A DNA stretch of 64,000 nt from Parcubacteria bacterium OLB19. Its GTDB lineage: Bacteria; Patescibacteriota; Minisyncoccia; Phycocordibacterales; UBA918. This document shows positions 30,278-63,137 of this stretch, piece after piece; the first letter of the stretch is position 1; each line of letters begins with the position of its first letter. The DNA lies in NCBI GenBank assembly GCA_001567365.1, contig JZEL01000010.1, positions 15,030 to 79,029 on the forward strand, in the 5' to 3' direction. The position numbers and the translations under genes were made by a program. Below the pieces are notes generated by a model. It was not told the origin of the DNA, did not search any database, and saw only the letters and a list, made by a program, of their open reading frames with translations.

Positions 30278-30279
30278 AA

Positions 30280-39523: not shown

Positions 39524-39607
39524 ATCATTATTATGACATCTTCATGAAGATAAAGTGTGTATTTATATCCCCAACTAAATGTATCTCGAGAGATGTAAAT
39601 TTGTAGT

Positions 39608-41104: not shown

Positions 41105-41130
41105 ACTGATTAAGACATCATATCATTTAA

Positions 41131-44100: not shown

Positions 44101-47100
44101 AATCAAAGTCCCATAAGCATCACCGGTAGTAGTTCGTCCATTAACACTAAATGATGAACCATAATTTAACCTGAGAGTTGAGCCAGTCCAAGTTGTATTT
44201 GCACCACCTACAGAATTTGTAAATACACCACCAACAGTAATATTAGCTCCAGACTGTACAGTTAAACTACTGACGTTGGCGATAGTAAAATTATTAGTTG
44301 TGGTGGCACTTTCAAAAGTATAACCACCGGCCGGCGCACCAATTTGTAGATTATAGAAAGCGTTATTACCTACATTAATTGTTCTACCGGTAGTAGTTGA
44401 GTTAAGAAGTACAGTACCAGATGAATGAGTAAACACTCCTGAAGAAGCGAGTAATGAACCGCCAATTGAAGTGGTACCTGTAGCCATTATTACTGTACCA
44501 GTGCTTATAGTTAGTGATTCCAGTAAACTTAGATTAACATCCGAAATAGTAAATGTACCGTTTCCTACAAACTTAACACCGTACAAGTCTGACGAGCTGG
44601 CATGCAATGTAGCAGTTGAGGTAGCAGTAAGAATCAAATCTGATGTATTGTGTGTGATTGCACCACCTGTATTAATAAAATTACTTCCAATAGATAAACT
44701 ACCGGTCGGCAGAGTAACAGTACCGGAATTTATCATCACCTGACCAGTTGCGGTTGCGTTAGTGTCGGTCATATTAAATGAACCAGAACCATTGAAGTAA
44801 AGATTTGCTACATTTGAGCCATTGAACCTGACTGTATTTCCAGCTCCTGTACTAGTAAATACAATTGGACTACCATTAACTGTAAACGAACCTCCCGTTA
44901 CATTAAACGCACCGCCAATAGTGGTGGTAGCAGTTGGTAAGGTAGCGCTACCGCTTGATTGAGAATATGAACCATTAACAGAAAGCGTTGTATCTGTTAT
45001 ATTCCAACTTCCTGATCCAGATAGGGTTAGATTATGGAAACTATTTTCATTAACATCAATCGTTCGTCCTGCCCCAGTAGTAGTGAGAGTAAAAGTAGAA
45101 CTGGCCGATACCAGCTCAGCACTATTACCAAATATCATACTTCCACCTACACTATGAGTTTCGGTAGTCTTGGCTCGGAAACGGCCACTACTTTGTACCT
45201 CCAACGTACCATCTTGAGCTCCACCAGCACCACCACCACTTAGAGTTACATTTCCATTTGGTTCAAATGTCTTTCCAGTCCAAACCAAAAGTTTAGTATT
45301 AGCAGGTAATGTTAAAGTGTCAGGACTACCACTAACAGCTGTAAAAGGTATATCAGCATCATCACTACTATCCCAAACCGCCATATTATCAATAGTAAGC
45401 GGGTCGGTATTCTCATGTCGGACAATTACTCGATTTTCATACAAGTGCATATTAGCAATTGATGATACTGGGGAAACACTGACATTAGCAGCTTTTTCAG
45501 TCTCTCCGTTTATATAAAGAGTTAGCGTATCAGCCGGACTAAAAGCAATATTACTTATGGAATAAGCTCCTGTACCCGCATTACAGGTAGTGTCATACAT
45601 AGTAAGTCCAGCCACTACCAAACGAATATTGCTAGTAGCTCCATCACAAGCTCCAGATACAGTTGAACCTTCATCACTATAAACATTACCAGCAATAGTT
45701 ATTAGAGCGGCTGAATCATCCCAAACCACATAACCTGGATCACCATCAGGATCACTATCAAATCCTTCACCAGCAATATTTCCAATATGGTTAGTGAAGC
45801 GCCATGACGAAACCGATGTGCCAGTAGCAGTCACGTTAATAGCGCCAGTTACCCCACCTCCGGCCTCAAACTTATTATGAGTGAAATTTTTAGCTTGATT
45901 TGCGTCAATTACAGTACCTCCAACAGTCACAGCGGTAGCACTATTTATAGCTACTAAATGATCAGTATAGGAGAAATCGTTAACTGTTGGTGTACCAGAA
46001 AATACTATACCATTGGAATTAACATCTCTAACTTGAACCCGACTCCAAGTGGTTGAAGCGGATGTTCCTATAGTTAAACCAAAGGTTCCACTACCTTGAT
46101 TTTGAATAGTTGTAGTAGCTCCACTTCCACCCACTACTGACAATGAAGCACCTGCCCAAGTTGCACTAGCTCCACTAGCAAGGTAAACATTGGCAACTCT
46201 TTCACTTCCAGACAAACTTGTGCCATCAAAATCTGTAGCGTAACTCCAATAATCACTACCACTAGTACGTAGTAGCTGACCCCAAATATACAAACTTCCA
46301 TTCACATCAGCATGATCTTGTGAGTAAAGTGAACCAGTACTATTCACATTATAAGCAGCTGCATCTGAGCTCCACATTCTAATTTGTGTACCAGCACCCA
46401 CGTTCAAATTAGCATAACTGTCACTAGTGGTTGAGCTATTAATTAGATAAGTACTATTTCCGTATAAATACAATGTTGAACCAGTCCAGGTAGTCTTTGC
46501 TCCACCAAGTCCATTTTCAAACTGTCCACCAACCGCTAAAGTTTGACCGCTACTTAAAGTAAAATCATCATGATTTTGCAGTCTCCAAGTGGTAGCAGTA
46601 GCGTTATTTGTCACATTAAAATCACCGGTACCGTTAATTAAAACTGTACCAAAACTAGAATTACCAGCATTAATATTAGTATTACCAGTTCCAGTAAAAC
46701 GCACAGTTCCGGAATTATTGGTAAAGATACCACCATTAGTCCAATCACCCAGAACTGTAAGGTTGGAACTATTACTTGCTTCAAGTGTACCATTGCTTGT
46801 AATTAACACATCACCACGTATTTCCAAGGTTGGATCATTGGTATTGACATTAAAAGTAGAATTAGCTGAACCACCAATGGTCAAATCATTCAAAACCAAA
46901 ATTCCACTACCAGTACCCGTATAGGTTGGTGAACCAGCACCAGCGTTGAGAATTAAATTATAATAATTTGTACTCGGAACATTAGCACCTGCACCACTAA
47001 AACGAATTGTGCTTGTATCCTCAAGTAAAGTTCCAGTTTCTGTAAAAACAGTTCCACTACCAGCTAAATCCCAAACAGAACTACCGGCATCCAAGAAATG

Positions 47101-50100
47101 GGCGTTACTAATAGTTAATGTGCCAAGAATAGAGGTGGTGGCAGTAGATACCGGGGTTGTTGTTCCAACAATCGAACCATTACCTAAAACTAAATTATTA
47201 AAAGTCCAAGCACTAGTACCACCAAGAGTATTGGTCTTATTAAGGAGAACTGTTCCGCTTCCCATAGACAACACTCCGTTACCACTAATAGAACCATTAG
47301 TCATAACTATATTTCCAGTACCAGTAACTGTTCCTGATGCGACTTGCATATCACCATGGACAGTTAAGTTTGCGCCAATATTCCAACCACCACCGGTTCC
47401 GGAAAATACCAAATTATTGAAAGTAGTGGTAGCAACTGAAGTTATACTCTTACCAGTAGTAGTAGCATTGAAGGTAAAAGTGGAAGAAGCGGTGGTAAAG
47501 GTGGCATTCCCTCCAACAACAAGACGCCCAGACAAAGTATGTGATTCTGTACCTTGTGCTACAAAACTAGATGAAGTGGCTAGAGCTAAAGTTCCTTCAT
47601 AACTATTACTATTTCCATTTCCACCAAGAGTTAAATTACCGTTCGGAGTAAAGGTAGTGCTAGCAAAGACATAAAGTTCAGTATTTGCTTCTGTTGATAG
47701 TGTATTCGGTGATCCAAGAGTGGCAGTAAAACTAATATCCGTGTCATCATCATGGTCATACATACTCATATCAACAATCGCTAAATCATCAACATCCTCA
47801 TGTCGAAGAATAACTCTATTGGCGTATATATCCATATCCGTTACATCGCCAGTTAAGGTTTTTGTAACCACGCTACCCTTTTCACCTCCATTAGTATCTA
47901 GATATACCACCACTCTTGGATCACCAATATACGCCACATTGCTAAAACTATAAGCGCCAGTACCAGCATTACATGAAGTAGAGGAAGCATAGGTTCCGCC
48001 ATCAACAACAATTCGAACATTAGCAGTTGAACCATCACAAACCGGCGCACCCATAGGTGTCAAACCAGCATCACTATAAACTGTACCAGATACAGTAACA
48101 ATGAAAGAAGAATCATCAAAACGTACAGATCCAGGATCAGTATCATTAGCATCATAAGCCTCACCATAAATACCACCAACACCGTCACGGAACCAAATAT
48201 ATGAACTTGGTGTACCAGACAAAGTTACGTTACTGGCTGTGCCTGAGGAAGTGGTAGCAAAACCGATACGATAAAATTGTCCAGACGGATTGGTATCAAT
48301 AGTGGTCGCATCAACCGTCATACCGGTAAGCCCTGGCGCTACATTAAGATAGCCATCACTAAAGGTAGTCAGAGTGGTAGATGAAGTTAGATTTAGTCCA
48401 TAACCATCAGTCCCACTTATAGTAAAATATTGATTATTTAAGGTGGAGTTAGTTGTTGTGAGGGTGTAAGTACCACTAATAGCACTGATGGTTGATGATG
48501 CGGTTGAAGTTCCTATCATTGATAACGAAGCACCAGTCAAGCTAATACTAGAACTTGAAGCCACTTTAACATCAACCTGTCTATTAGCCCCAGTTAAAGC
48601 TACGCCATCAAAATCTGTTGCGACGCTCCAGTATTCAGTACCAGTAGTACGAGCATAATTCCCGTAAATATTTAGATCACCATCAACACCAGCATGATCT
48701 TGAGAATAAATCGCACCAGTAGCTCCACTTGTTACATAGTTGTCGGCACTAGAATTCCACATCTTCACTAAAGTACTGCTAGCTGCCTCTAAAGTTCCAT
48801 AGCTATCACCAGCGTGAGTTTTGGCATTTAAAGTAATCGTACCACCATTCAATAATCTAAGAGTAGACCCTGTCCAGGTGGTATTGGTTCCAGTTGCAGT
48901 GTGAGTAAACGAACCAGAAACAGACAATGTTTTACCACTACCTAGAGTAAATTGCTGGACACTGGCCAAAGTCACCGCTCCAGTAGCTGTGGCATTTTCA
49001 GTAATTGTAAAATCACCGGTAGCACTATTGAAATCCAAACTAACAAATGGTGAATTTCCAGCATTAATTGTTTCACTACCAGCTGTTGAATTAAATCTGA
49101 CTGTACCATTATTTGCATTAAAGTTGGCACTGTTAGTTAATGAACCACCGATATATAGAATGCCACTTGGGAATGTGGTGGTACCATTTCCCAGCAAATT
49201 TAAATTACCGAGCACTGTTACATTAGTATCTGAAAGCGTCCTTGTTGAGGTTGAAGATTCACCATAGACACGTAGATTATTGAAAGATGAACTATTGGTT
49301 CTTACCTCGTTTGCATTTTGTATCAAAAGTACGACTTCACCATTATTATGACTAAATGCGCCGGAACCAGTCACATTCATATCACCAGCTACAGTTAATT
49401 GACCACTAGGTAAGGTCACAGTACCAGACTGAATTCTTAATGTTCGAGAGGTAGTAGCATTAGTATCGGCATAAGACCATGAACCTGAACCTGAAAAGAC
49501 TAGGTCGTAAAATGCATTTAGGAAGGCTGTACCATTTTGCAAAACACTTCTGCCAGCTGAAGTACTAGTCATTCTTACTTCACCGTTATTATGAGCAAAA
49601 GTACCACCAGTATTAAGGAATGAACCCGCAATAGTTGTAGTACCAGTTGGCAGCGTTACAGTACCAGTAGCAATAGTTAGGTTACCATTTAATGCTAGAG
49701 TGGCGGTAGTGAAGGACCATGTACCACCAGTTCCAGCAAAAGTTAAATTATTAAACGCTGAACTACCACGGTTAATCGCCGCACTAGACGTACCTACAAA
49801 CGTTACAGTACCAGTTTGAGGAATAAAGGAATTATTGTTAGTCCATGAACCGTAAACATTTATATTATAGCCAGAACCAGATGCGTTTAAAGTATCATCG
49901 GCTCCTATAGTTACCGACTGCGCTGCTACATTACCACCAAGAGTAATTGTTTTGGTTGTACCATCTACCACCACATAACCCACATTACTACTGCTACTGG
50001 TGGCCTTTGCATCACTCCAAGTATAACTACCAGAGCCATTAAAAGTGGTGGTGGCCAAACCAGACGTATAACCCGAACTGCCTAGTTGCAGATTACCACC

Positions 50101-52374
50101 AATACTTAAAGTAGAAGTACCTCTAGCCAATGTTCCGTAACTAACAACCAATGAACCTTCTGTAGCAACAGATTTATTAGGAGTCCATGTCGCTCCACCA
50201 CTTGTTTCACCAAAAGTAAGGTTATAGAAATTAAGTGATGAAGTAGACGTTTGTAGAGTTAAGCTAGAAGTGGTAGCTGTAAATATAATAGTTGAGGCTC
50301 CAACTGTAAAAGTACCATCTTGTCTCCAATTACCAGAAACACGAAGCGTATTGGTTGCTGGTGTAAAAGTACCATAGTTTTCAAAGTTTATAACAACACC
50401 GTTTGTATTTGGCTGATATGTGGTGCCAGATAAAATTCTAAACTTAGCATCTGTACAAGCACTCTCAGCACACAAAGTCAAAACATTACTACCATCAACA
50501 CTAAAGAATAAATCTTCACCATTACCGTTATCGTAATAATTCAAATCTGAGTTTGTAAGAGTTGGTGCATCACCAGAACCTAAAGTTAGATTTCGCTTAG
50601 CTAATTGCATAGCAGAAATGTTTCCGTTTCCGTCATATTTAGTTATCGCCACAGACTCATCCGTATCTGAAGCTCCAGTGATAAACACGGTAATAATATC
50701 GTCCTCAAACATGGTTACATTTGGTATAGACCAACTTCCGTCACCACCAATAGATGCTGTTTTTCCGGTTTGAATAACACCATTTACAGCAATAGCTACT
50801 GTACCGCTATTGATAGTTGTACTGGCATCATATTCGTAAGCCGTACCAGACACAGTAATACCCTCAGACCAAGCTACTGACCAATCTTCAAGCGTTGGGC
50901 AATCACCAGCTACACAGTTAAATTGTGCATCTAAAGCCAAGGTGTTGTATACAGTTTTGTCGAGTTCTGATAGATCAATCGGACTGGTTGTAAAACCTGA
51001 ACTATTACCTGCCAAAGCACTGTCTGGCACTAAGGCATATTCAGAAGTAGAAGCTAGATAGTAGAGTCGATATTCAACATAGCTAGTTCCAGAAGTGGTA
51101 TCGTTCCAAGTCACAGCTTCCCAGCGTGGTCCAGAGCCATCATCGAAATCTATTGGTGTTGAACGAATTGAGCCTGAGATAAAATCTGGATATATGCGGG
51201 CCACCATATCTAAAGAACCATCAAATGGAGTTCCGGTTATCGATGGTGAAGAACTGATAGCTTGACGAGTCGACCAACTACTTCCATCCCAATTACTTAC
51301 ATCATAACGGTCGTTTACATCATCAAAGAAAGCAGTGTGTATTTTACCATCACCAGCTCTCACCGTAATAACTCGCCAAGAGTCTAAAATTGTGTCCAAT
51401 GTTAATTCACCGCCAAAAGTAGTAGTTGCAGCAGTTTGATAACGACCATTAGTACCATCAGAATACGTAGCTATAGTATAGCCATCGCGACCACTAGAAG
51501 TCTCGAATTCACAATCAACTGCATGACCAGCCTTACCATTACCAATTTGTTCTATTTCACTGTAAGCTGTCCAACTACTACCACCCCATTTTGCAACACC
51601 AATGTTTATATCATTATCAATGTAACAAAGTATAACCTCATCGGTTCCAACATCTCTTTTAAGGGTAGCCCATTCAATATGGTCACCAATCGCATAAGTC
51701 GAAGTTGACCAGGTAGCACCATTCCATGTTGCATACAGCAAAGTAGTAGCTAAGTTATTACTTAAAGCGACAATCGCTTGATTTCCAGATTCTTCATAAA
51801 CAGCTGCCGCTCCTGCATTAGCATCTTCATTCATATTACTTAGAGCCATAGCATTACCCCAAGCATTACCACTCCAAACCATGAGTTCATAATCTATAGC
51901 ACTGGTATTAGTATGCTTAAATACAGCCACAATTTCATCCGTGGTAGGATCGGATGCCAATTCCACATAAACACAATTGTTAGTATTGGCCAATGTGATT
52001 GATGATGTCGCAGACCATGAAGTACCATTCCAAATACTATAAACAGCATCATTCCCACTACAAGAAACAGCTAACAAATCACCCGAACTCATCTCGTAAG
52101 CTACATCAAAACCTCTTTGCAAAGTGTTTGGAATATTGTTATTTAATTCATTTACACTACCCCACGAGTCAGTTTCGGTGTTATAAATTTGCACGTTCAT
52201 ATCTGCATCAGTACCAACTGTAGCCAAGGCGTACTCAGGACGAGTAGGCGCAGCTTCTAGTTCCATCCAACGAATTTGAGCATCAACACTTTCAGCAGAG
52301 GCAGCTGTACTCCAACTAGTTCCATTCCATTTTCGATAGCGTGGTGCTTGATTTGTACCTTCACCATAAGCCAT
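41131..52374 (-). CDS. Giant Thr/Ser/Gly/Asn-rich surface protein (3747 aa) with no signal peptide of its own. It has an N-terminal propeller-like module, about three ~800-aa beta-helix-like super-repeats and a conserved C-terminal domain. Probably the downstream half of one ORF that is interrupted at 52374.
   Basis: It starts MAYGEGTNQAPRYRKWNGTSWS with no hydrophobic N-terminus. Repeated LTxxGxxTxxG beta-helix-like units are present. The blocks ...YSQDHAGVDGDLNIYG, ...YSQDHADVNGSLYIWG and ...YSQDHANVNGNLYVYG lie ~2.3-2.4 kb apart. The C-terminus is YWGIAVPFG...TGLNTFTAVGI. Confidence 0.7.
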   Translation of the reverse strand: MAYGEGTNQAPRYRKWNGTSWSTAASAESVDAQIRWMELEAAPTRPEYALATVGTDADMNVQIYNTETDSWGSVNELNNNIPNTLQRGFDVAYEMSSGDLLAVSCSGNDAVYSIWNGTSWSATSSITLANTNNCVYVELASDPTTDEIVAVFKHTNTSAIDYELMVWSGNAWGNAMALSNMNEDANAGAAAVYEESGNQAIVALSNNLATTLLYATWNGATWSTSTYAIGDHIEWATLKRDVGTDEVILCYIDNDINIGVAKWGGSSWTAYSEIEQIGNGKAGHAVDCEFETSSGRDGYTIATYSDGTNGRYQTAATTTFGGELTLDTILDSWRVITVRAGDGKIHTAFFDDVNDRYDVSNWDGSSWSTRQAISSSPSITGTPFDGSLDMVARIYPDFISGSIRSTPIDFDDGSGPRWEAVTWNDTTSGTSYVEYRLYYLASTSEYALVPDSALAGNSSGFTTSPIDLSELDKTVYNTLALDAQFNCVAGDCPTLEDWSVAWSEGITVSGTAYEYDASTTINSGTVAIAVNGVIQTGKTASIGGDGSWSIPNVTMFEDDIITVFITGASDTDESVAITKYDGNGNISAMQLAKRNLTLGSGDAPTLTNSDLNYYDNGNGEDLFFSVDGSNVLTLCAESACTDAKFRILSGTTYQPNTNGVVINFENYGTFTPATNTLRVSGNWRQDGTFTVGASTIIFTATTSSLTLQTSTSSLNFYNLTFGETSGGATWTPNKSVATEGSLVVSYGTLARGTSTLSIGGNLQLGSSGYTSGLATTTFNGSGSYTWSDAKATSSSSNVGYVVVDGTTKTITLGGNVAAQSVTIGADDTLNASGSGYNINVYGSWTNNNSFIPQTGTVTFVGTSSAAINRGSSAFNNLTFAGTGGTWSFTTATLALNGNLTIATGTVTLPTGTTTIAGSFLNTGGTFAHNNGEVRMTSTSAGRSVLQNGTAFLNAFYDLVFSGSGSWSYADTNATTSRTLRIQSGTVTLPSGQLTVAGDMNVTGSGAFSHNNGEVVLLIQNANEVRTNSSSFNNLRVYGESSTSTRTLSDTNVTVLGNLNLLGNGTTTFPSGILYIGGSLTNSANFNANNGTVRFNSTAGSETINAGNSPFVSLDFNSATGDFTITENATATGAVTLASVQQFTLGSGKTLSVSGSFTHTATGTNTTWTGSTLRLLNGGTITLNAKTHAGDSYGTLEAASSTLVKMWNSSADNYVTSGATGAIYSQDHAGVDGDLNIYGNYARTTGTEYWSVATDFDGVALTGANRQVDVKVASSSSISLTGASLSMIGTSTASSTISAISGTYTLTTTNSTLNNQYFTISGTDGYGLNLTSSTTLTTFSDGYLNVAPGLTGMTVDATTIDTNPSGQFYRIGFATTSSGTASNVTLSGTPSSYIWFRDGVGGIYGEAYDANDTDPGSVRFDDSSFIVTVSGTVYSDAGLTPMGAPVCDGSTANVRIVVDGGTYASSTSCNAGTGAYSFSNVAYIGDPRVVVYLDTNGGEKGSVVTKTLTGDVTDMDIYANRVILRHEDVDDLAIVDMSMYDHDDDTDISFTATLGSPNTLSTEANTELYVFASTTFTPNGNLTLGGNGNSNSYEGTLALATSSSFVAQGTESHTLSGRLVVGGNATFTTASSTFTFNATTTGKSITSVATTTFNNLVFSGTGGGWNIGANLTVHGDMQVASGTVTGTGNIVMTNGSISGNGVLSMGSGTVLLNKTNTLGGTSAWTFNNLVLGNGSIVGTTTPVSTATTSILGTLTISNAHFLDAGSSVWDLAGSGTVFTETGTLLEDTSTIRFSGAGANVPSTNYYNLILNAGAGSPTYTGTGSGILVLNDLTIGGSANSTFNVNTNDPTLEIRGDVLITSNGTLEASNSSNLTVLGDWTNGGIFTNNSGTVRFTGTGNTNINAGNSSFGTVLINGTGDFNVTNNATATTWRLQNHDDFTLSSGQTLAVGGQFENGLGGAKTTWTGSTLYLYGNSTYLINSSTTSDSYANLNVGAGTQIRMWSSDAAAYNVNSTGSLYSQDHADVNGSLYIWGQLLRTSGSDYWSYATDFDGTSLSGSERVANVYLASGASATWAGASLSVVGGSGATTTIQNQGSGTFGLTIGTSASTTWSRVQVRDVNSNGIVFSGTPTVNDFSYTDHLVAINSATAVTVGGTVIDANQAKNFTHNKFEAGGGVTGAINVTATGTSVSSWRFTNHIGNIAGEGFDSDPDGDPGYVVWDDSAALITIAGNVYSDEGSTVSGACDGATSNIRLVVAGLTMYDTTCNAGTGAYSISNIAFSPADTLTLYINGETEKAANVSVSPVSSIANMHLYENRVIVRHENTDPLTIDNMAVWDSSDDADIPFTAVSGSPDTLTLPANTKLLVWTGKTFEPNGNVTLSGGGAGGAQDGTLEVQSSGRFRAKTTETHSVGGSMIFGNSAELVSASSTFTLTTTGAGRTIDVNENSFHNLTLSGSGSWNITDTTLSVNGSYSQSSGSATLPTATTTIGGAFNVTGGSFTVNGSPIVFTSTGAGNTVRFNGSNVANLYFNGSGSFNMTDTNATATGQVMINSGTVTLPTGSLSIGSNFINTGGAITHNTSDLILTATSTATLHASSSDLYGVKFVGNGTFTISDVNLSLLESLTISTGTVIMATGTTSIGGSLLASSGVFTHSSGTVLLNSTTTGRTINVGNNAFYNLQIGAPAGGYTFESATTTNNFTIANVSSLTVQSGANITVGGVFTNSVGGANTTWTGSTLRLNYGSSFSVNGRTTTGDAYGTLIVGDNTDVRMWYSSASSTTVSSSGSLYSQDHANVNGNLYVYGDFSISTTTEYWNYATDFDGTSLFGSERQVNVYMATSATTTVNSGVLQILGGSGNVTNIQGQDNGNYTIKVLGGELNANQYAFYDLDINGLQLANISSITNLSDGYFDLAVDTGALITLSSTTLNANPSMIFDNVGFHATTGISGYNVSLVGETSNAWRFTNNYGNIGGEGFDIDGLDACGSVRFDDSSCLITEQTHYRWRNDDGGEGGVASEWYADTSFDLRKRIRVENNDNQTYASTSVKVTITYDSDMKSDFSDLRFTDDDGVTAIPFWVEKYTASTEADVWVLIPSLPANGQAVLQMYYGSTTASSISDGEQVFTAFDDFEDNDIAEYSGDTTLFNTVGTPVYGGSYSLKPTNTSGKTTDGIFRFDQTISQGEIIRYMQYVNTSGTSDEPCTLFGVQSPGTNNQNYAVCLEQFGTDRISLSRNVANNDTSGTVLATSTVTYSTGWYEVVVDWQTNDDIDVYLYNSSGSLVTSVSANDTNYTSGGYGYAFWYQNGTWDSFTSRPRVDTAPTIYVGSEQTTGGATWVAVQDTAGSADVGENVRLRVSIENSGLDITSQQFRLEYAAKDSAPSCGSVDAVNYATVPNQASCGTSPVCMATSSQIADDDATSDHLTDVSGEFVTGKMVESPSSETTATDVLQNYYTELEYVIKTTINADDSYCFRVTNAGTELDFYAEVAELSPRFIPVFGAVSLNGGQDISLTPGTTTEVYATGTVTDMNGYSDLAHATTTIYRSGVGPSCTPDNNNCYVLSTTNGACSFTDCSGNTCTLSCLADVYFHADATDADTYEGQEWLAYLEAEDQTDGYEFASAPGVELLTIRALEVDSLINYGSLLVESDTGSYNPTTTVTNLGNSPIDIDVEATDLSDGATSYIPADQQKLATSTFTYSACVSCYTLSSSTPTAIDLNLSKPTTVAPPVETEVYWGIAVPFGTSNSTHTGLNTFTAVGI
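43100..49200 (-). repeat. About three in-frame tandem super-repeats of ~2.3-2.4 kb each inside the 3747-aa CDS. Boundaries are approximate.
   Basis: Anchor motif YSQDHA is found at about 48700, 46310 and 44015 on the + coordinate scale. The flanking ~800-aa blocks align residue by residue (NNGTVRFNSTAGSETINAGNSPF... / NNSGTVRFTGTGNTNINAGNSSF... / SSGTVLLNSTTTGRTINVGNNAF...). Confidence 0.6.
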
Positions 52375-55300
52375 CAGACTTCGGTTATTGTGGTGGTAAT
52401 TTGTGCTCCACCGGCGGAAGTTTCGATATCTGTTAAGGTGTCAGTATCAAATTGTTCGCCAGTAGTTTGGTGCCATGTAGATACAGTAATTGCAGTATCG
52501 ACAGTAAAACTTCTTTGATCTGAGTATTTAGACCAAATATTGTCCCCACCAGGATCTCTAGCTCGCACTCGCCACCAGTAAGTATTTCCGTTAGTCAAAG
52601 CTGCTTGGGCTGTATAACTAACAGTGTTGCCAGAAATAAATGGTGAAATATCAGTACTAGAAGCAGTGTTTGCAAAACCAGCATTCGTACCAGATGTAAA
52701 TGTAGAAGATGACGTAAAATCATAGGTGCTAGATATTTGTAATTGGTACTGAATATCGTCACTTTCAGGGTCTGTAGTGTAAAAAGTAAAGGTTGGTGTC
52801 GTAGTAGCCACTTTAGCATTATCAAAATATTGAACTAAAGTTGGAACTTCAATCGTTTCATCCCAAGTTACAGTCCAATCCAGAAGTCTTGGTAAAGTGC
52901 TATTACCACTAAATACTGCCCTTATTCTAATTTCATTATAAGTCTCTGGATTAACTGTGCTTAGAGACACTGGCGATGATGTAAAACCGGTACTATTCCC
53001 AGACAAAGCACTATCTGGAATCAAAGAGTAATTTTCGCCTGACACACGATATTCAACATAATATCTAATACTACCGGAAGTTACATTATGAGTGAACAAT
53101 AAAGCCCCCCAAGCATTTCCAACCGTACCATCATCAAAATCAATCACAGATGAAGTAGTGGTACCGGCAGTAAAGCTTGAATCTATACCAACATCATTTG
53201 TACTAGTTGAATTGATTGTATCTAGAAGAGTATCAGTATTAAATTGATCACCTGTTGTTTGATACCAAGTAGAAATCAGAGTCCCAGTATCAATAGTAAA
53301 ACTCTCTGGTGTAGACCAATCTCCATACTCACCTGACCCTGATATATCTTGACCGCGTACTCGCCACCAATAAGTATTACCGTTAGTTAGACTAGTAGTT
53401 GGAGTATACTTAATTCTTTGTCCACTCGTAAACTCACTCTTCATATCGGGATCTAGAGTGTTTTCAAATAGAGTGAAGTTGGTCACCGAATCATTATCAA
53501 TCACAGTACTACCAAAATTAACATCAGTAGAAATTTGAATTTGGTAAGCAACATCATCACCTAATTCATCAATGGACGCGAACTCAAACCATGGCGTAGT
53601 TGAAGCTAGTTTTTCATTATCAAATGGAGCATAGAGATCCGGAGCTAAAGGTGGTGCATTCGTAATAAGTCTTGGGTAATTAGTATAAGTATTAAAAACA
53701 GAACCATCTGAATAAACCATTCGGAAACAGTAATTTGTACTACTGGTGGCATTATTATTTTGAATAGCAAAATCCCATTCAGTATCATCATCTACTGGCA
53801 AGGAATTTTGATTTTCTTCAGTTGGATTTATTTCCTCATAAGTTTCAAAAGTATCAGAATCAGTCAAAAGTGTTGACGTTAACGACAAACCATCACCTAT
53901 ATATTCCTCAGCCGAAACAGCGTAGAAACCGGTTGGATTTGATTGGTTATTAAACTCAGTAGCTATCCAACCGTTACTGCGACGCACATTAGAGAAGCGC
54001 AATTCATCAAGTCGACCGACAAATCCTTCAGTTGTTTCACCACCGAAGTTTTGCCAATCTGAAGTACCACTCTGAGCCACATCACTAAACAATCTTGTGG
54101 TTGTACCATTTATATGTATATCAACTTTATTACTACTATCACGCGTTAAAACTACATGATTCCATTGTGAGTGTGCTGGATAATCAACACTTGAATCAGA
54201 TGAAGAAATTACTCGAGCAAATAATTTTCCTGATGGTGAGCTCCAAGGTCCTAATTTTTCGTTAGCACCACTAGGTCCTGCAATAGCATATCCAGTAGAA
54301 GAAGAATACCACCACATCGATGCAGTAAATTCACCAGTATACGCCAGTGCAGTTTGGAACACACCACCGTCGTTACCATCAAGATCAATAGCATTACCAA
54401 TTTTTCCAACTATAACATCTCCAGACGTCATACCAGCACGAGCTACCGCATGATTAGCATTACTGGTACTGTCTCTAAATTGTGGACTAGATCCAGCTGG
54501 GTTATTACCCATTTGATAACGCAAAGAATAACCGTTCGTCCACACATTTCTCGAACCATAAGTAGCACTAACTGAATACCCTGACGCACTTGGATTGTCG
54601 TAATAAATATAATATTCCTTGTCTGTTGTTGATGATAAAGTAGCCTTAAAATGTAACTCTCCGGTTTCGCTACCAGTATTGATGAAAACTAATTCATAAG
54701 GTACCTCAGTCAAACCGTCATCTTGCGTGACACGAATATCATCGCCATCGCTTTGTACATTTTGGAAGAAAGTGGATGGTAAATCAGCTAAGTCAACATA
54801 AACTGGAAAATTAGTCACATCATCCTCCACCACATCGCTTTCTACTGTTATCTTAATGCGTTTACCCCATCCACTAGCAAGCCAATCACTACCGGCAATA
54901 GAATTTTCATGACCACGCCACACAGCTGTAGTAGATGCCGGATCACCAACATCATGCCATGTTAGCGATGGACTACAGTTTGAACCCTCTGCATATTGTA
55001 ATTTGAAGGCTTCGGAAAAAGCTGGCAATGTAACATTAGCTCCTTTAAGTGACATTCTCAGTCTAATCGCAGATCCTGAATTGATTGCATAAGATGAACT
55101 AATAGCCGTATTTTCAGCTATATCAATCACTCCAGATGGCCAAGGATCAGTTGGGGTTAGGAAACTTCCATTTACATACCAACGATAATTACTCTGTGTA
55201 ATTTTTGGTTCACGCATCCATGACAATGTCCAGTCATCCAAACTAGCAGATTGACTACCAACCGTAGTAATGGTTGCTTCAAGACAGATTTGATTGTAAG

Positions 55301-58300
55301 TACTGGTTGACAATCCGGTCAAATCAATCGGCGTGTCACTCACATCAAAACCAGTGCTGTTGCCAGACAACACACCATCAGGCACTAAAGTATCACAAGC
55401 TGTAGTACTTGAATATAAAACACTAACCTTTACATCTGTTCCTAAAGGTTCTGTAGTTGAAAAACTCACATCTCCCCAAGTTGGTTGATTTGGTACCCAA
55501 TCAAAATCAATTACTGGTGTTGTTACTACACCTTCAGAATACTGAAAACGTTTAGCCACCATGTCAAACATCTCATATGGCGCAGCTATAACTGAGGAAG
55601 GACTGGTTTCAATTGTATCTTTAGTTGACCAACTGGTACCATTCCAATACGCGGATTCAAGATCATCTGAAGTATCATCGAGAGTGACAGCCACCACTAC
55701 ACCATCATCTGCCCTTTCAGTCTGTACCCAGAATGAGTCTGATATTGTACTAACAGTAGCCTCAGTACTCCAACTGGTTGTAGTAGTACCGTGGCGATAT
55801 CTTGTGTCAGTAGTGTCACTATATATAACCATATGATAGTCAGTACGACCAACTACATCTTCGTAGGTACATTCAACTGGTCTACCAGTTGTGCCATTAG
55901 CAGTAGTTTCAACCTCTTGAAAAGTATTCCAAGCACCACCGTCCCATTCCAAAATTCCAATATCAGTACTTGCATCTACGTAGCATAGAAGTATTTTATC
56001 TGTATCTTTATCAGCCGTCATACGTCCAAACAGAAAATCATTACCTATAGCTTGTGTAGTATTTGGACTTAATTCTGTACCATCCCAAACAGTGTAAGCA
56101 ATACTATTAGCAGTACCATTACCTACCGCTATAACTGCCTGGTCACCAGAGCTTTCAAACATCACTGACATAGCCTCAACTCCAGCTGATGCTGGCGAAC
56201 CGATCACTCGACTATCCACCCAAGCTGTACCGTCCCAAACAAAGGTTTCATATTGAGTACCTGTGTCACGCACAATCAAAATAATTTCATCTGAAGCTGG
56301 GTTTGATGCAATCTCAAGCATATTACATGCGTTTGCCGAAGCAACGGTGATGCTAGTTGTTGCAGACCAACTAGTTCCATTCCAAATACTATAAACAGCA
56401 TCATTTCCATCACAAGATACAGCCATTGCATCTCCAGATAAACTTTCGTATGTTATTGCGATACCTCTATATGTGTTAGTAGTTAGTGCTGGCGATAAAA
56501 GCTTTTGATTACCCCAAGAACTACTAGAGGCACTAAAAATCTGTGCGTAAGCGTCATTACTTTGATCTAGAGTTATAAGTGCATATTCATCACGCGTAAC
56601 TCCTGAGGCTGTGCGCACCCAGTTTATGGTATTACTTACCGCAACAGCACTCCCTTCCACTCCCCAAGCTGAACCATTCCAAAGCCTGTATCTTGGTGAT
56701 GTGTTTGAACCCTCACCATAAACAATCAACATCTCTGTTGCCTCGGTTGCATCAACCTGCACCTTATCTGATGCATTCGATACTGTACCAACCAACGTAT
56801 CACCATCAAACTGATCACTGTATGTCTGATACCAGTTTGGTGCTTGAGCGGACATGTCGACAGTTAGACTTTGTGTTGTAGACCATTCTCCATACTCATT
56901 TGAACCACCAGTATCACGAGCCCGCACCCTCCAATAGTAAGTTTGTAAGTCTGTTAGAGCATCTGCTGATTGTAATTGATATCTAATTTTATTACCTTCA
57001 ACAAATGGTGACGTATCTGTACTTGAGGCTGTATTTGAAAATCCAGAGTGTGTACCTGAAACACGAGTAGTTGAGGCAGTAAAGCTAGAAGTGGTAGAAA
57101 TTGAGAATTGATATTGTATATCTGAAGTTCCATCCGGATCTGAGGCGGAAAAGTCAAAATACGGTGTAGTTGAAGCAAATCTAATATTATTGAAAGGCGC
57201 ATCATAAAGAGTTGGTGCCACAGGGCGCTCATTGAGTTGTGTTTTTTGCCACACCATCAGTAAAGCAGGCGTAGTATCATCCAATGTTCCAGCACCAGCC
57301 TCTTGTATTGAAGTAACGCTAATAATATCATTTGCACTTAGATTCTCTAACAGATACACTAACGAACCTGATGAATTAGTATGTCCGCTTTGGTTTCTTA
57401 TATAATGTGACTTTACTTGTGCTCCCGAAACCTCAGATCCGTTGACCAAGATTTTAACTGTAGTATTAGAACGATTAACAGTACCATTCAGCGCATCATT
57501 ATAAACAACAAAATAACTTCCTGCTTCATCTACCGTAATTTGATGACTATTGCTAGAGGTGGAATGTGTGAAAACTGAAGTATCATAAACTCTCTGCGTT
57601 GCCCACTGTACTGAACTCGCCGCTGCAGGATTCCAGTTCGTACCACTAACCAAACGCACGCCCTCAAGTACAATCATGTCACTTGTGGACAATTTCTCAA
57701 CAAAAATTGAACCTACAAAGCCGGTAGAAACAGTACTAGTACCAGCCGCCGCTTCACGTTCTGTCGTTATAGTCAAAACCTGATTAGTAGTAGTAGCCAC
57801 CACAATACCAGACCAATGTATTGAACTGTCACCATCATCTTCATTTGCAGTTGATTGAGTATAACCTTGAGCAAAAATACCACCGTTCACCTGAACCCCG
57901 TCTAACCTCACACGTCCAAGCACACTTTGTTGCGCTGTACCACCAGTTAAAGGAACATTAACTGTCACCATATAAGTACCAGCGTTAGCAATAATTATAT
58001 TTTCAGGATTTACTGAATCAGAATGAGTAAAACCAGAATCTTGACGAGTTTCAGTCCATTGCAAAGAATAAGCTGTGGTTTGATTTAAATTAGTAGAGTT
58101 TGTTGTTCTGGTGGTTGTAGCAGAAAAAACATCTCTGGTTGAAGCAATATATTCCATATACAAACCAGCTTTCCCTGTTACATTCACAACATCACCAGCA
58201 TCGATAGTGGTTAAACCTACAGTGTAAACTTCCACATAATCATTTGGTGAAATATCCTTAAGTAGAAAGGTTGTATGAGTAGAGGATTCACTATGACTAC

Positions 58301-61025
58301 CAAAATTGCGAATATAACCACTACGGCCAAGACCATCAGGAACCGCAGTGCCATTTACTCTCACCTCAACACCTATACGAGTACGACTACTATTACCGTC
58401 AGTTCTCTGTTGTGGTACAGTTACAGCCAAGAGATAATCACCACTTTGTTTTAATGTGACCTTATGTGTATCTGTTGTAGTTGAATGAGTGAAATAGTAG
58501 GAATCAACAGTTGAAGTACTCCACTGGAGAGGACTTGGTGAAGCATTAAGATTTGTACCACCTACAGTTCTAGTACCAGTAAACCAACCAATTCCTGTTA
58601 ATGCGTCGGAAGCTATTTGCCATTGCCTTAACTCTCTAAAACCATCCATATTAAGTGGACCCAAAAGATACATATACGGACTAATATCTGGTGCGTCAAA
58701 CTTATATCTAAATTGTACTGACTTACCTTCTTCAAGATTAACATTTCGCCAAACAAGCTCGGTATAATCTGGTAAAGTGATAATTTCGGCACCACCAGTA
58801 TCCTCTATCACAAATCCTCTTGGTAATCTCTCTACCACATCACCATCATAGATGCGGTTTGCTTTTACGTTAATTGTAACTTCATATGGCGAAGGGGGAT
58901 AGATACGTGTTGGGGCGGTTCTCTCAATATCGTAAGGAATATACTCTCGCACCTCAAAAGTGTCACGGATATTATGAACCACACTTCCATCAGCATTTAA
59001 ATGCTGTAGCTGTATTGTATAAAGGCCAATCTTATCTGTTTTATCAAAATCAGCTAAATAATCTGGTACATCAGTGACGTTATTCTTACCACAATGTCCA
59101 GACTGACTTACTGGTGTCTCATATATATTATTTTCCGGATCAACAATTTTTAGCTGTAAATTAGCATCACAAATAGTGTCTCCCTTGTCCGTCAAAGCTG
59201 CCAAATTAAGTTTTACTTTTTCGTTTGGTAGATACATTGTCTTGGTAGTATTTACTGCTAAGACACCCCAATAGAATTCAAAACTATCAGTGTATAGTGT
59301 TTCATTTTCATTCACCACCACCTCGATTTTGTATTTACCTGGTAATAGTTTTTGTGGTTGCTCTAAGAACTTTATTGTCCAGGTTTTATCATCCTGATAA
59401 ATAAAATCAACTGGTACAGTTATGGCGACTCCATTTTGATCAATCACACTAACAGCATCAATTTTATATACATTCTCACTGAAGATTGAGTTGAAGATAC
59501 GTTTAAAGAAGTTTTGTTGCGGTGAATAATTTAAAGTAAATGTTGGTAGTGAGCTTAACGTAAAATCTAATTCCGTATCATTGAGTTCGTGGAATTTTGG
59601 CTCTAACAAACTTCTCTCGTAAGTAATTTGATTAGTCAAATCATTTGGATCTGGTTTTTCATAGAATGAGGATGATTCTACCTCTAACCACAAACTTTCA
59701 ACATAAGCACGTTCTAGATTATCAATATTACCTTGATATGAAACTCTTACCTGCAACTTAGCAATATCACCCTGATTAGCTGGATCTTCCAAAGAAACAA
59801 GGAAATAACCTCCATTAATACTGTTGGATACTTCGTCCTCTATATCAATAACAGTGGCTGTTTGCCAACCCTTACCATCGCCATAATCATATTCCACGAC
59901 AAACCGTTGTAACTCTGACTCATTAAGATTCTTAGTTTGACCAGCCAATGAAAGACGAAGCTGCGCTGAGGTAATAAATTTACCTGATTCAAATTCTGGC
60001 ATCATAAAACCAGAGAAGACCATATCGTAGGTTTTACAATTTGGCGAAGCATTACATTCTTCTTTTACAGTTGGTGGTGGTACATAGTTATCATTTTCCG
60101 TATCTGTAGTCACCTCCTCAGTAGCATCCTCAGTCTCTGCCACAGTTTCAACAATGTCACTTTCGGTATTATCAACTTGCAAATCTTGATTCTCTTCACT
60201 AGCCACATCACTAACATCAACTGTTTCTGTTTCTGATTGATTCACATCACTCGAAGATTCAACTTCAATTGCTTCATCCGTAGTAGAGACATCATTTTGA
60301 TCAACATTAGATTCAACAGAATTTTCCTCCTCTACAACATCATTGCTTTCTGTATTACTTTCAGTTGTGGTCACATAAGTAGTAATTGATTCTTGCAACA
60401 ATGGATAAGTTTTTTGAGATTGTGTAAACACACCCCAATTCACGTCATTTTTAAAATTAAAAGATGTTTCATTTTGAGGAGCAACTTCAGTGTTATCCGC
60501 TTCTGGCTCACTACTACTATCTGTAGCTTCAACCTCTTCAACTGTTGGGTCAGAATTTTCACTTTCCACTTCAACCTCCTCTACAGGTGACTGTGGAGAT
60601 AAATCTGTAGGAGTAGACTCTGAGTTTACAGACTCATCAACCGTTTCCGTTGAAGTGGTGTCGTTCAATCCATCCACAGGAGACATATCACCTTCAGTTT
60701 CGATTACTGATGAGGTATCAGTAACACTATCAATCACAGGCAACGGGGCTGGTGCAACAACAACAGAATCAATAAAGGCAGAGTTCTCTGGTGAAAAATT
60801 CTGGAAAAGTGATTCTGAAGAAATATCCTGACCTAGAGTCTTTTCTGGTTGTGACCAAGTATTCGAAGTTACAGAATCAGGAATAATTACTAGTTGTTCG
60901 GAAACAATTTCAGTTCTATCTACCGTAGCATACACAAAAATACCCACAAGCAACACAAAAATTGCCAGCATCCATAAAGAAATTCTACGGAAAAAAGCCT
61001 TAAAAATCATTACATAACAACCCAC
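52374..61025 (-). CDS. Giant membrane-anchored surface protein (2883 aa): N-terminal TM, an acidic stalk, Ig-like domains, three ~115-aa FTHS repeats, three FN3-like YYWRVRARD modules, a propeller-like module and a LamG/ConA-like domain. Probably the upstream half of one ORF continuing into 41131..52374.
   Basis: N-terminal TM is ISLWMLAIFVLLVGIFVYA. A D/E/S/T/V-rich region of ~300 aa follows. FN3-like modules end in YYWRVRARDTGGSNEYGEWST / YWWRVRGQDISGSGEYGDWST / YWWRVRARDPGGDNIWSKYS. LamG-like stretch: NAIDLDGNDGGVFQ...FTASMWWY...GRLDELRFSNVRRSNGW. The stop TGA overlaps the next ATG (ATGA at 52372..52376). Confidence 0.7.
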   Translation of the reverse strand: MGCYVMIFKAFFRRISLWMLAIFVLLVGIFVYATVDRTEIVSEQLVIIPDSVTSNTWSQPEKTLGQDISSESLFQNFSPENSAFIDSVVVAPAPLPVIDSVTDTSSVIETEGDMSPVDGLNDTTSTETVDESVNSESTPTDLSPQSPVEEVEVESENSDPTVEEVEATDSSSEPEADNTEVAPQNETSFNFKNDVNWGVFTQSQKTYPLLQESITTYVTTTESNTESNDVVEEENSVESNVDQNDVSTTDEAIEVESSSDVNQSETETVDVSDVASEENQDLQVDNTESDIVETVAETEDATEEVTTDTENDNYVPPPTVKEECNASPNCKTYDMVFSGFMMPEFESGKFITSAQLRLSLAGQTKNLNESELQRFVVEYDYGDGKGWQTATVIDIEDEVSNSINGGYFLVSLEDPANQGDIAKLQVRVSYQGNIDNLERAYVESLWLEVESSSFYEKPDPNDLTNQITYERSLLEPKFHELNDTELDFTLSSLPTFTLNYSPQQNFFKRIFNSIFSENVYKIDAVSVIDQNGVAITVPVDFIYQDDKTWTIKFLEQPQKLLPGKYKIEVVVNENETLYTDSFEFYWGVLAVNTTKTMYLPNEKVKLNLAALTDKGDTICDANLQLKIVDPENNIYETPVSQSGHCGKNNVTDVPDYLADFDKTDKIGLYTIQLQHLNADGSVVHNIRDTFEVREYIPYDIERTAPTRIYPPSPYEVTINVKANRIYDGDVVERLPRGFVIEDTGGAEIITLPDYTELVWRNVNLEEGKSVQFRYKFDAPDISPYMYLLGPLNMDGFRELRQWQIASDALTGIGWFTGTRTVGGTNLNASPSPLQWSTSTVDSYYFTHSTTTDTHKVTLKQSGDYLLAVTVPQQRTDGNSSRTRIGVEVRVNGTAVPDGLGRSGYIRNFGSHSESSTHTTFLLKDISPNDYVEVYTVGLTTIDAGDVVNVTGKAGLYMEYIASTRDVFSATTTRTTNSTNLNQTTAYSLQWTETRQDSGFTHSDSVNPENIIIANAGTYMVTVNVPLTGGTAQQSVLGRVRLDGVQVNGGIFAQGYTQSTANEDDGDSSIHWSGIVVATTTNQVLTITTEREAAAGTSTVSTGFVGSIFVEKLSTSDMIVLEGVRLVSGTNWNPAAASSVQWATQRVYDTSVFTHSTSSNSHQITVDEAGSYFVVYNDALNGTVNRSNTTVKILVNGSEVSGAQVKSHYIRNQSGHTNSSGSLVYLLENLSANDIISVTSIQEAGAGTLDDTTPALLMVWQKTQLNERPVAPTLYDAPFNNIRFASTTPYFDFSASDPDGTSDIQYQFSISTTSSFTASTTRVSGTHSGFSNTASSTDTSPFVEGNKIRYQLQSADALTDLQTYYWRVRARDTGGSNEYGEWSTTQSLTVDMSAQAPNWYQTYSDQFDGDTLVGTVSNASDKVQVDATEATEMLIVYGEGSNTSPRYRLWNGSAWGVEGSAVAVSNTINWVRTASGVTRDEYALITLDQSNDAYAQIFSASSSSWGNQKLLSPALTTNTYRGIAITYESLSGDAMAVSCDGNDAVYSIWNGTSWSATTSITVASANACNMLEIASNPASDEIILIVRDTGTQYETFVWDGTAWVDSRVIGSPASAGVEAMSVMFESSGDQAVIAVGNGTANSIAYTVWDGTELSPNTTQAIGNDFLFGRMTADKDTDKILLCYVDASTDIGILEWDGGAWNTFQEVETTANGTTGRPVECTYEDVVGRTDYHMVIYSDTTDTRYRHGTTTTSWSTEATVSTISDSFWVQTERADDGVVVAVTLDDTSDDLESAYWNGTSWSTKDTIETSPSSVIAAPYEMFDMVAKRFQYSEGVVTTPVIDFDWVPNQPTWGDVSFSTTEPLGTDVKVSVLYSSTTACDTLVPDGVLSGNSTGFDVSDTPIDLTGLSTSTYNQICLEATITTVGSQSASLDDWTLSWMREPKITQSNYRWYVNGSFLTPTDPWPSGVIDIAENTAISSSYAINSGSAIRLRMSLKGANVTLPAFSEAFKLQYAEGSNCSPSLTWHDVGDPASTTAVWRGHENSIAGSDWLASGWGKRIKITVESDVVEDDVTNFPVYVDLADLPSTFFQNVQSDGDDIRVTQDDGLTEVPYELVFINTGSETGELHFKATLSSTTDKEYYIYYDNPSASGYSVSATYGSRNVWTNGYSLRYQMGNNPAGSSPQFRDSTSNANHAVARAGMTSGDVIVGKIGNAIDLDGNDGGVFQTALAYTGEFTASMWWYSSSTGYAIAGPSGANEKLGPWSSPSGKLFARVISSSDSSVDYPAHSQWNHVVLTRDSSNKVDIHINGTTTRLFSDVAQSGTSDWQNFGGETTEGFVGRLDELRFSNVRRSNGWIATEFNNQSNPTGFYAVSAEEYIGDGLSLTSTLLTDSDTFETYEEINPTEENQNSLPVDDDTEWDFAIQNNNATSSTNYCFRMVYSDGSVFNTYTNYPRLITNAPPLAPDLYAPFDNEKLASTTPWFEFASIDELGDDVAYQIQISTDVNFGSTVIDNDSVTNFTLFENTLDPDMKSEFTSGQRIKYTPTTSLTNGNTYWWRVRGQDISGSGEYGDWSTPESFTIDTGTLISTWYQTTGDQFNTDTLLDTINSTSTNDVGIDSSFTAGTTTSSVIDFDDGTVGNAWGALLFTHNVTSGSIRYYVEYRVSGENYSLIPDSALSGNSTGFTSSPVSLSTVNPETYNEIRIRAVFSGNSTLPRLLDWTVTWDETIEVPTLVQYFDNAKVATTTPTFTFYTTDPESDDIQYQLQISSTYDFTSSSTFTSGTNAGFANTASSTDISPFISGNTVSYTAQAALTNGNTYWWRVRARDPGGDNIWSKYSDQRSFTVDTAITVSTWHQTTGEQFDTDTLTDIETSAGGAQITTTITEV

Positions 61026-61062
61026 CTACCATTTTCAGGTAGAAAGGGTTCAAGAATATTAT

Positions 61063-61097
61063 AACCCGCTATCTTACGATAGGCGGGTTATTTTTCC
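61063..61097 (-). terminator. Intergenic hairpin with adjacent T-tract; candidate (bidirectional) terminator between 61111..62649 and the giant gene
   Basis: AACCCGCTATC-ttac-GATAGGCGGGTT followed by ATTTTTCC on the + strand. On the minus strand the stem is followed by AUAAUAUUCUU. Confidence 0.35.
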
Positions 61098-61110
61098 TCA
61101 TTGTGTGGAT

Positions 61111-62649: not shown

Positions 62650-62672
62650 AAGGAACTGTAGAAAAATTAATC

Positions 62673-63137
62673 TTACTTTGTAACCGACCTTCGATCCTGC
62701 TTTATTCTTAATCTAACCCTCTCTTTTTCTGAAGCCTTAAGCAAAGGGAGAATCAAGATAAGAACTCCGTTTTTTATTTTAGCTTCCGCTTTTTCTATAT
62801 CAACACTTTCAGGCAAGATAATTCGTCTATAGAAATCTCCCCAAACACACTCCTGAGCAAAGAATGCACCTTGTTCCTTCTTTTTTGAGAAAACTAAATA
62901 TTCCGGTCTTATTCTCCTTCCTTCAATCAAAACTATATCAGCATCGCCTTCAATTGAAACATTAACGTCATTCATATCAGCTCCTGCTGATTGAGCATAA
63001 ATCACAATCATTTTTTCGGTTTGGTAAACATCTACATCAAGCTGAGCAACCTTATCCGCTGCTGTCTCTTCTGAATCTGATTGCAATGCTTGACCCGATC
63101 TTACACCACGATTTTTTAATCTTTGCAGGAATGACAT
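62673..63137 (-). CDS. Hsp20/alpha-crystallin family small heat-shock protein
   Basis: ACD hallmarks: LDVDVYQTEKMIVIYAQSAG...FYRRIILPESVDIEKAEAKIKNGVLILILP. Confidence 0.75.
   Translation of the reverse strand: MSFLQRLKNRGVRSGQALQSDSEETAADKVAQLDVDVYQTEKMIVIYAQSAGADMNDVNVSIEGDADIVLIEGRRIRPEYLVFSKKKEQGAFFAQECVWGDFYRRIILPESVDIEKAEAKIKNGVLILILPLLKASEKERVRLRIKQDRRSVTK

Follow-up and report, generated by a model that had tools for sequence, protein, structure and literature searches.

The closest described structures to the domain considered here are the Photorhabdus lectins PLL and PHL (PDB 5C9L, 5MXE, 6RG2 and 8Q81), extracellular seven-bladed propellers whose four-stranded, Trp-rich blades of about 50 amino acids (aa) each carry a W-motif. 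PHL contains disulfides, and binds fucose between blades by two Trp residues and galactose by Arg91, Glu93, Ser, Gly and Trp (PMC5584973). A second precedent comes from type IV pili: PilX2 of Nanosynbacter lyticus TM7x, a member of the Patescibacteria, is a propeller-bearing minor pilin that is needed for host binding and is PLL-lectin-like (PMC11623550). PilY1 of Pseudomonas likewise places a propeller, of a modified seven-bladed form, on a pilus protein. Here we analyze a propeller module of about 395 aa, marked by a recurrent WNGxxW motif, that is encoded twice in a 64,000-nt stretch of the genome of Parcubacteria bacterium OLB19 (contig JZEL01000010.1). This whole stretch is hereafter called the window; positions follow its own numbering, and all of its large open reading frames (ORFs) lie on the minus strand.

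The module shares the W-motif blade architecture of PLL and PHL, but probably has eight blades rather than seven, and those proteins are free soluble lectins, neither nested in giant proteins nor fused to pilins. PilX2 offers a functional precedent, as a propeller on a type IV pilus protein within the Patescibacteria, yet its propeller is heptabladed, built from RCC1 repeats and of a different family; moreover, unlike the propellers of PilX2 and PilY1, the module of the window sits in a giant non-pilin protein. Literature searches turned up no account of the module, the nearest papers being concerned with the RCC1-type PilX2 and with unspecified "PilY-like" archaeal adhesins. The module represents a real domain family, uncatalogued as a domain, in which a familiar fold is combined with a novel architecture.

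Two module copies in one interrupted giant gene

All ORFs of at least 200 aa in the window (1..64000) are on the minus strand, among them ORF A (41131..52374, 3,747 aa) and ORF B (52374..61025, 2,883 aa). We searched the first 400 aa of ORF A against four ORFs (A, B, and C1 and C2, the two parts of another giant gene treated below) using BLASTP with composition-based statistics. The single strong match was to ORF B aa 1434-1827 (398 columns, 40% identity, E 6e-94). A family hidden Markov model (HMM) built from 40 homologues and run on the six-frame translation of the entire window recovered the same two regions, scoring 418 bits for copy 2 (51190..52374, ORF A aa 1-395) and 397 bits, over model positions 1-389, for copy 1 (55542..56726, ORF B aa 1434-1828), with no further match at E<=10. 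Translation of 51085..52374 reveals PRYRKWNGTSW, AVYSIWNGTSWSAT, VWSGNAWG, TWNGATWS and other motifs at a spacing of about 50 residues, and the motifs quoted in the first-pass annotation of this DNA (PRYRxWNG, AVYSIWNGTSWSAT, W.G.AW and WNG..WS) are all found there.

The likeness between copies 1 and 2 is far above what chance or composition would give. The giant proteins are rich in Thr, Ser, Gly and Asn, and the match to a third region (see below) is short, as might be expected if composition alone made these regions look alike. Against this stand the E values of 6e-94 for the module and 2e-152 for the larger duplication around it, both obtained under composition-adjusted statistics, as well as the invariant Trp, Gly and Cys columns of the homologue alignment (Cys 105, 134, 250 and 288 being invariant among close homologues), the 701 cluster representatives matched at E<=1e-10 in a database search, and a confidently predicted fold. 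A merely compositional similarity, which the first-pass annotation had named as a possible refutation, has a negligible probability and is ruled out for copies 1 and 2, while the third region resembles the module in one blade motif only.

Sliding self-comparison of ORF B joined to ORF A revealed that B aa 1256-1950 is duplicated at positions 2714-3398 of the concatenated protein (40% identity over 705 columns, E 2e-152), in an alignment that runs unbroken over the stop of B and the start of A. The duplicated unit of about 700 aa comprises, in order, an Ig-like domain of the Rha78A_N type, a 'WYQT..QFD.DTL' segment, the propeller and a beta-rich segment of about 125 aa. Host unit 1 (55161..57260, B aa 1256-1955, with Pfam Ig_Rha78A_N at B aa 1280-1388) encloses copy 1, and host unit 3 (50815..52886, B aa 2714-2883 plus A aa 1-520) encloses copy 2 and spans the boundary between the ORFs. 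Host unit 2 (52806..53705, B aa 2441-2740), which also matches Ig_Rha78A_N, is free of a propeller and marks the insertion point.

When the propeller was excised in silico, unit 1 aligned to unit 2 straight through the cut (37% identity, E 2e-49), and so did unit 3 (43% identity, E 1e-60). Because the propeller-excised units align continuously to a natural propeller-less unit, these alignments show the propeller to be a discrete cassette that occupies a single defined site in a repeated host unit of about 290 aa. The binding "head" considered in the first-pass annotation, with one copy at an N-terminus, thus gives way to a cassette nested within a repeat.

The boundary between ORFs A and B coincides with the loss of a single base. 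In a DNA alignment with three related genomes, one base is absent from the window at 52377..52378, which reads GAAGT-CTGATGG where the relatives have GAAGTNYTGATGG (pattern GAAGT[GT][TC]TGATGG). The deletion generates the TGA that ends ORF B and that shares bases with the ATG start of ORF A (TGATG), and an identical gap is present in an independently called Logan contig from run SRR1797694 (L079, ~90..100). At the corresponding point of the duplication, ...QITTTITEV followed by MAYGEGTNQ... aligns with ...DATEATEMLIVYGEGSNT..., and several of the closest relatives read ...EVLMAYGEG... across the junction. In the closest genomes, which include Candidatus Parcubacteria ND3_Bin_27 (71% identity) and metagenome-assembled genomes of Kaiserbacteria and Paceibacteria, the module lies in an unbroken frame that extends about 2,850-2,920 codons upstream of it and over 3,730 codons downstream. 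Two modules are present in each of four full-length relatives (6,513-7,456 aa), and in three of the four (P0046, P0053 and P0055) they lie at positions near those of the window.

Because homology runs over the junction, the frame of the relatives is open and the DNA alignment contains a 1-nt gap, ORFs A and B are, on sequence grounds, a single gene of about 6,630 aa with a break at 52377/52378, which may be a genuine mutation or an error at the read level. In the reconstructed gene (41131..61025, ORF B followed by ORF A), copy 2 occupies residues ~2884-3279, and its apparent location at the N-terminus of the 3,747-aa ORF, as first reported, is an artefact of the deletion. The reconstructed protein begins with an N-terminal membrane anchor/signal, a plain hydrophobic anchor with no pilin motif, and contains Ig, MG2 and TNF-like domains, the two propeller-bearing units, long repeats of about 250 aa and DUF2341 (ORF A aa 3052-3127). 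The ~250-aa tandem units, 40-46% identical, fill much of ORF A (41131..50000, aa ~770-2990).

Predicted fold, conserved face and candidate function

AlphaFold2 (AF2), run on copy 2 with a 40-sequence alignment, returned an all-beta model with a predicted local distance difference test score (pLDDT) of 91.9 and a predicted template modelling score of 0.92. The best Foldseek matches in the PDB were the seven-bladed lectins PLL and PHL (E 4.5e-12; template modelling (TM) score 0.60 by query and 0.70 by target), at sequence identities of 11-14%, followed by sialidases (TM 0.40-0.46, E ~1e-9), GH145 hydrolases and six-bladed AAL-type fucose lectins. Carbohydrate-active propellers dominate the top 50 PDB matches, within which PilY1 does not appear, and a search of viral folds in BFVD yielded generic phage propellers only. 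The model therefore places the module in the beta-propeller fold class, in agreement with the first-pass annotation. That annotation had suggested looking for a propeller of six or seven blades or for a sialidase-like fold; the propeller is borne out, whereas the repeat count is probably eight and sialidases match less well than PLL and PHL.

DSSP assigns 27 strands to the model, those between residues 34 and 374 forming seven four-stranded groups. Residues 1-30 (pLDDT 94-97) contribute three more strands, homologous in sequence to the B, C and D strands of other blades, and residues 384-393 (FDGSLDMVARIY) look like the A strand of even blades. Eight W-motifs recur about 50 aa apart, and in this domain of 398 aa the autocorrelation maxima of the profile fall at lags of 99-100 aa (z 4.6), 199 aa and 247 aa. 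Odd blades carry the pattern 'W..L...P.R/D.E' and even blades 'FD.AYE..SGD', with a W-[NDSG]-G-x-x-W hairpin between the third and fourth strands of nearly every blade.

From the eight W-motifs, the 398-aa length, the ~100-aa autocorrelation and the DSSP pattern of seven blades plus a split eighth, we infer eight blades of about 50 residues, arranged as four two-blade super-repeats with a 3+1 "velcro" closure. The ring would be closed by an eighth blade made of three N-terminal strands and one C-terminal strand. Such a closure would set the termini side by side, so that a loop of another domain could accommodate it as a cassette, and the observed nesting fits a ring closure that brings both termini together.

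Over 121 aligned domains, conservation reached 2.18 bits per column in the A-B and C-D loops, which contain P.R.E, YE..SGD and WNG..W, compared with 1.29 bits in the B-C loops and 1.26 bits in the D-A loops. In propellers, the B-C and D-A loops form the usual ligand-binding face. We propose that the module binds ligands outside the cell, most probably glycans in the manner of a lectin, and that it would be used in attachment. The A-B/C-D loop motifs, together with two probable disulfides formed by the four conserved Cys residues, would make a rigid scaffold, and the hypervariable opposite face would set specificity. The domain is probably extracellular, because the giant protein to which it belongs is membrane-anchored, contains Ig, MG2 and DUF2341 domains and is flanked by cohesin and dockerin proteins. 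In the window, it is inserted twice in a predicted membrane-anchored surface protein of a Patescibacteria (Parcubacteria/Kaiserbacteria-like) bacterium; in its pilin-like relatives, it would be displayed on a filament.

Given the carbohydrate-active structural neighbors, the extracellular context, the pilin-like fusions and the contrast between a conserved and a hypervariable face, we infer a role in ligand binding and adhesion, so that the binding role suggested in the first-pass annotation is plausible. Overall, we favor, with some reserve, the view that the module is a discrete, uncatalogued eight-blade propeller of about 395 aa, inserted twice as a cassette and acting as a lectin-like adhesin module that binds ligands at the cell surface. 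Several points weigh against it. The conserved face itself could hold repeated binding pockets rather than serve as a scaffold, and the solved neighbors are seven-bladed with TM scores of only 0.6-0.7, which limits the lectin analogy to the level of the fold. Blade number and closure derive from periodicity and DSSP, not from coordinates. Pilus genes were not found among the window ORFs scanned against Pfam, several of which gave no match. Finally, the giant protein may not be made intact in this genome, because the gene is frameshifted and its downstream 3,747-aa part has no export signal of its own.

One rival account starts from the hairpin motif and regards the module as a BNR/Asp-box propeller of the sialidase type, a likeness that the first-pass annotation had drawn from the motif spacing, and possibly as an active glycosidase. 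Asp-boxes (S-x-D-x-G-x-T-W) sit in the hairpin between strands 3 and 4, and the motif Y-x-x-W-[ND]-G-x-[ST]-W carries the Asp-box G and [ST]-W in register in that very hairpin, W-N-G-T-S-W matching the core D-x-G-x-T-W. The module agrees with BNR_2 (PF13088) in fold class and, in part, in this conserved hairpin of each blade, which closes on G-x-[ST]-W, and sialidases appear among the Foldseek matches at E ~1e-9. However, Trp takes the place of the Asp that defines the box, whose first Ser is unconserved, sialidases are six-bladed and superpose poorly (TM ~0.44, range 0.40-0.46, against 0.60-0.70 for PLL lectins), and the B-C/D-A face that bears the active site in the enzymes is the least conserved part of the module, with no sign of a conserved catalytic center. 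Scanning 40 family members against Pfam at E<=1 gave no BNR, BNR_2 or BNR_4 among the 25 most often matched families (fourteen rarer families lie outside this list), and on ORFs A and B neither BNR (PF02012) nor BNR_2 (PF13088) nor BNR_4 (PF15892) matched at E<=0.1. By comparison, in the propeller of the C gene, which serves as a positive control, BNR_2 matches 15 of 42 aligned sequences (41 homologues and the corrected window sequence). We therefore consider membership in the BNR family very unlikely for the module; the label suits the third region, a true BNR_2-type member within the first giant gene of the same window.

Two further alternatives keep the propeller and change what it does. 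The Trp of WxGxxW and the R-x-E/Y-E of the neighboring blade might form up to eight inter-blade sugar pockets, making the conserved face the binding face of a multivalent lectin, as in PLL/PHL and AAL/RSL. PLL and PHL are indeed the best structural matches, and the conserved R45-x-E47, Y93-E94, S/G and W of the module are the same kinds of residue as in the PHL pockets, but searches of Pfam and the PDB link the sequence of the module to no lectin family, its Arg and Glu positions are unlike those of RSL (which, with AAL, carries a W-D-G-x-G-W motif), and a structural hairpin explains the conservation of the motif equally well. At the sequence level, phmmer and profile searches of the PDB found no propeller, PLL and PHL included, at E<=10. 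We judge a multivalent lectin of this design unlikely; the conserved motifs may be a mere scaffold of Asp-box-like hairpins or may themselves form repeated sugar pockets as in PHL. Propellers are also generic interaction platforms, PilY1 and TM7x PilX2 being propeller-bearing pilus proteins, and a survey of archaeal type IV filaments mentions PilY-like adhesins in loci resembling that of an archaeal relative described below (10.64898/2026.04.22.720090); the module might accordingly be a WD40-, PilY1- or RCC1-like propeller for protein-protein interaction, or a structural spacer, with no carbohydrate role. This we hold to be quite unlikely: no propeller repeat family, RCC1 included, is among the 25 Pfam families most matched in the 40 members, a WD-type propeller matched one member only and weakly (E 0.012), the PilY1/Neisseria PilC propeller (PF05567) is missing from the families listed both for ORFs A and B and for the 40 members, and PilY1 falls outside the top 50 Foldseek matches.

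Relatives of the module and type IV filaments

No whole-domain Pfam model covers the module, and NCBIfam finds nothing for it. The sole Pfam model recognizing a part of it is DUF2510 (PF10708), which matches 12 of the 40 members (best E 9.4e-6) but is absent from ORFs A and B at E<=0.1 and from copy 2 alone at E<=1. DUF2510 is a short, stand-alone 'RYWDGxxWT'-type motif of about 35 aa, mainly actinobacterial, which probably matches single blades; it is not known to be a propeller, and it does not span the 395-aa domain.

An exhaustive phmmer search over 1.84 billion cluster representatives matched 1,098 of them at E<=1e-3, including module-bearing giants of 3,000-7,900 aa; tightening the threshold to E<=1e-10 left 701, and E<=1e-30 left 142. 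Three metagenomic proteins contain tandem matches spaced about 500-600 aa apart, namely 11 in P0065 (6,719 aa), 13 in P0080 (7,926 aa) and 5 in P0052 (2,681 aa), indicating that the cassette serves, as far as such matches tell, as a repeating unit in other proteins. GTDB representative genomes were scanned with the motifs of the first-pass annotation, which had suggested a search of metagenomic CPR proteins for PRYRxWNG, and with a closer 9-sequence alignment, yielding 230 confirmed loci. Most of these belong to Patescibacteria, as do all of the closest 45, and the more distant ones fall in Methanosarcinales (including the cultured Methanolobus profundi), Bathyarchaeota, DPANN, Planctomycetota and other groups. 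The domain does recur in adhesin-like giants of the Patescibacteria, as first proposed, but it is not specific to giants, since it is also present in many proteins of about 550 aa with a pilin-like N-terminus.

Many of these ~550-aa relatives (P0009, P0011, P0016, P0017, P0021, P0024, P0039 and P0044) begin with a prepilin G|FSxxE N-terminus, and N_methyl matches 8 of 40 family members. Their N-termini resemble minor pilins of the GspI/PilV/ComGE kind or archaeal UpsA, at scores below curated cut-offs except for TIGR02532 on P0016. We read the contigs of two pilin-like relatives, bacterial P0021 (L075, 4885..11140) and archaeal P0008 (L077, 4279..9662). Both hold compact operons of identical gene order, in which the propeller gene directly follows a T2SSE ATPase gene, one or two T2SSF platform genes and a small pilin gene. 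In its layout, the archaeal one is similar to "subsystem 4A" (10.64898/2026.04.22.720090). By the G|FxxxE motif and, on these two contigs, the adjoining T2SSE and T2SSF genes, the ~550-aa relatives qualify as predicted type IV pilin-like proteins, and gene order thus associates the module with pilus genes.

A further arrangement was observed in Methanolobus profundi Mob M (NZ_FOUJ01000004.1, L059, 6899..12430), where a 1,843-aa protein with a Sec signal carries the module between two regions that appear vWA-like by eye. Small genes flanking it encode N-termini resembling class-III (pilin-type) signals.

These relationships lead us to a broader and more tentative proposal. An ancient eight-bladed family may provide type IV filament subunits of both Bacteria and Archaea with their domain for recognizing receptors. 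Giant surface proteins of episymbiotic Patescibacteria may have captured it repeatedly as a nested cassette, with as many as 13 copies in tandem, and its hypervariable face would then select the host or surface glycan to which these ultra-small cells attach.

A second propeller family, neighboring genes and implications

The first-pass annotation had placed a third copy of the module at 24000..25150 in the first giant gene, of which this is the N-terminal part. This gene consists of C1 (24682..25278, 198 aa), which comes first and holds an N-terminal membrane segment, and C2 (19112..24685, 1,857 aa), its main part. BLASTP connected the module to this region over 43 residues only (...SSGDVMLINRSTSNTLRYSIWNGTNWSS...), profile-profile comparison with hhalign aligned one blade over 43 columns at a probability of 78%, and the family HMM found nothing there at E<=10. 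With a single matching blade, no family-HMM match and a propeller of the BNR_2 type, the region was rejected as a module copy.

The C gene is also split (24682..24730): C1 and C2 overlap in ATGA, with the shift near 24705-24712, beside a run of GGGAAAATTT. Homologue P0193 is 64% identical to the frameshift-corrected N-terminal region of about 415 aa, covering 100% of the query without a break at the C1/C2 junction. Its AF2 model (pLDDT 84.5) is a membrane-anchored propeller whose best Foldseek matches are a putative neuraminidase and sialidases. The region at 23984..25140 is accordingly assigned a BNR_2/sialidase-type propeller; the first-pass annotation was right to see a propeller there, but the family is that of sialidases and Asp-boxes. 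Its claim of one module common to three giants holds for ORFs A and B, which prove to be one gene, and fails for the third region. Correcting the gene model reduces the three "giants" to two genes, both interrupted by a frameshift, and the analysis tells apart two propeller families that look similar by eye.

In two of the 42 aligned sequences (alignment A3, which contains P0241), the prepilin methylation motif N_methyl is fused to the BNR_2-type propeller. Two unrelated propeller families thus appear to have been recruited to pilins and giant surface proteins alike in these lineages. Further along, C1+C2 contains an internal duplication, aa 426-776 against aa 777-1127, at about 46% identity.

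On either side of the giant genes are small proteins that look secreted; those at 61111..62649 and 28553..30277 contain cohesin domains and those at 63189..63839 and 32877..33998 contain dockerin domains, which suggests a cohesin-dockerin assembly system on the patescibacterial cell surface. Two pairs of ORFs, 16425..18185 with 18079..19101 and, in the other pair, 25322..26278 with 26154..27041, share more than 100 nt and may represent further frameshift-split genes or miscalled starts. Glutamate dehydrogenase also seems broken (14444..15710), with an ORF for the N-terminal domain (15048..15710, 220 aa), a gap and an ORF for a C-terminal fragment (14444..14908, 154 aa). Three disrupted genes within 64 kb (A/B, C and glutamate dehydrogenase) hint at pseudogenization or at an assembly with indel errors. 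Every 2-kb interval outside 6001..10000 has a negative GC skew, the cumulative value dropping almost steadily to -2.49, and no tRNA genes were found in the 64 kb.

How Patescibacteria and DPANN-like cells recognize and attach to their hosts is largely unknown, and the one tested case, PilX2 of TM7x, is a propeller-bearing pilin. The module may serve as a marker by which giant proteins, "hypothetical" in their thousands, could be annotated, and Methanolobus profundi is a cultured, tractable organism that carries it. Present in pilin-like subunits as well as in the largest surface proteins of these cells, the family offers a concrete, expressible domain of about 45 kDa with which host recognition and attachment may be approached.

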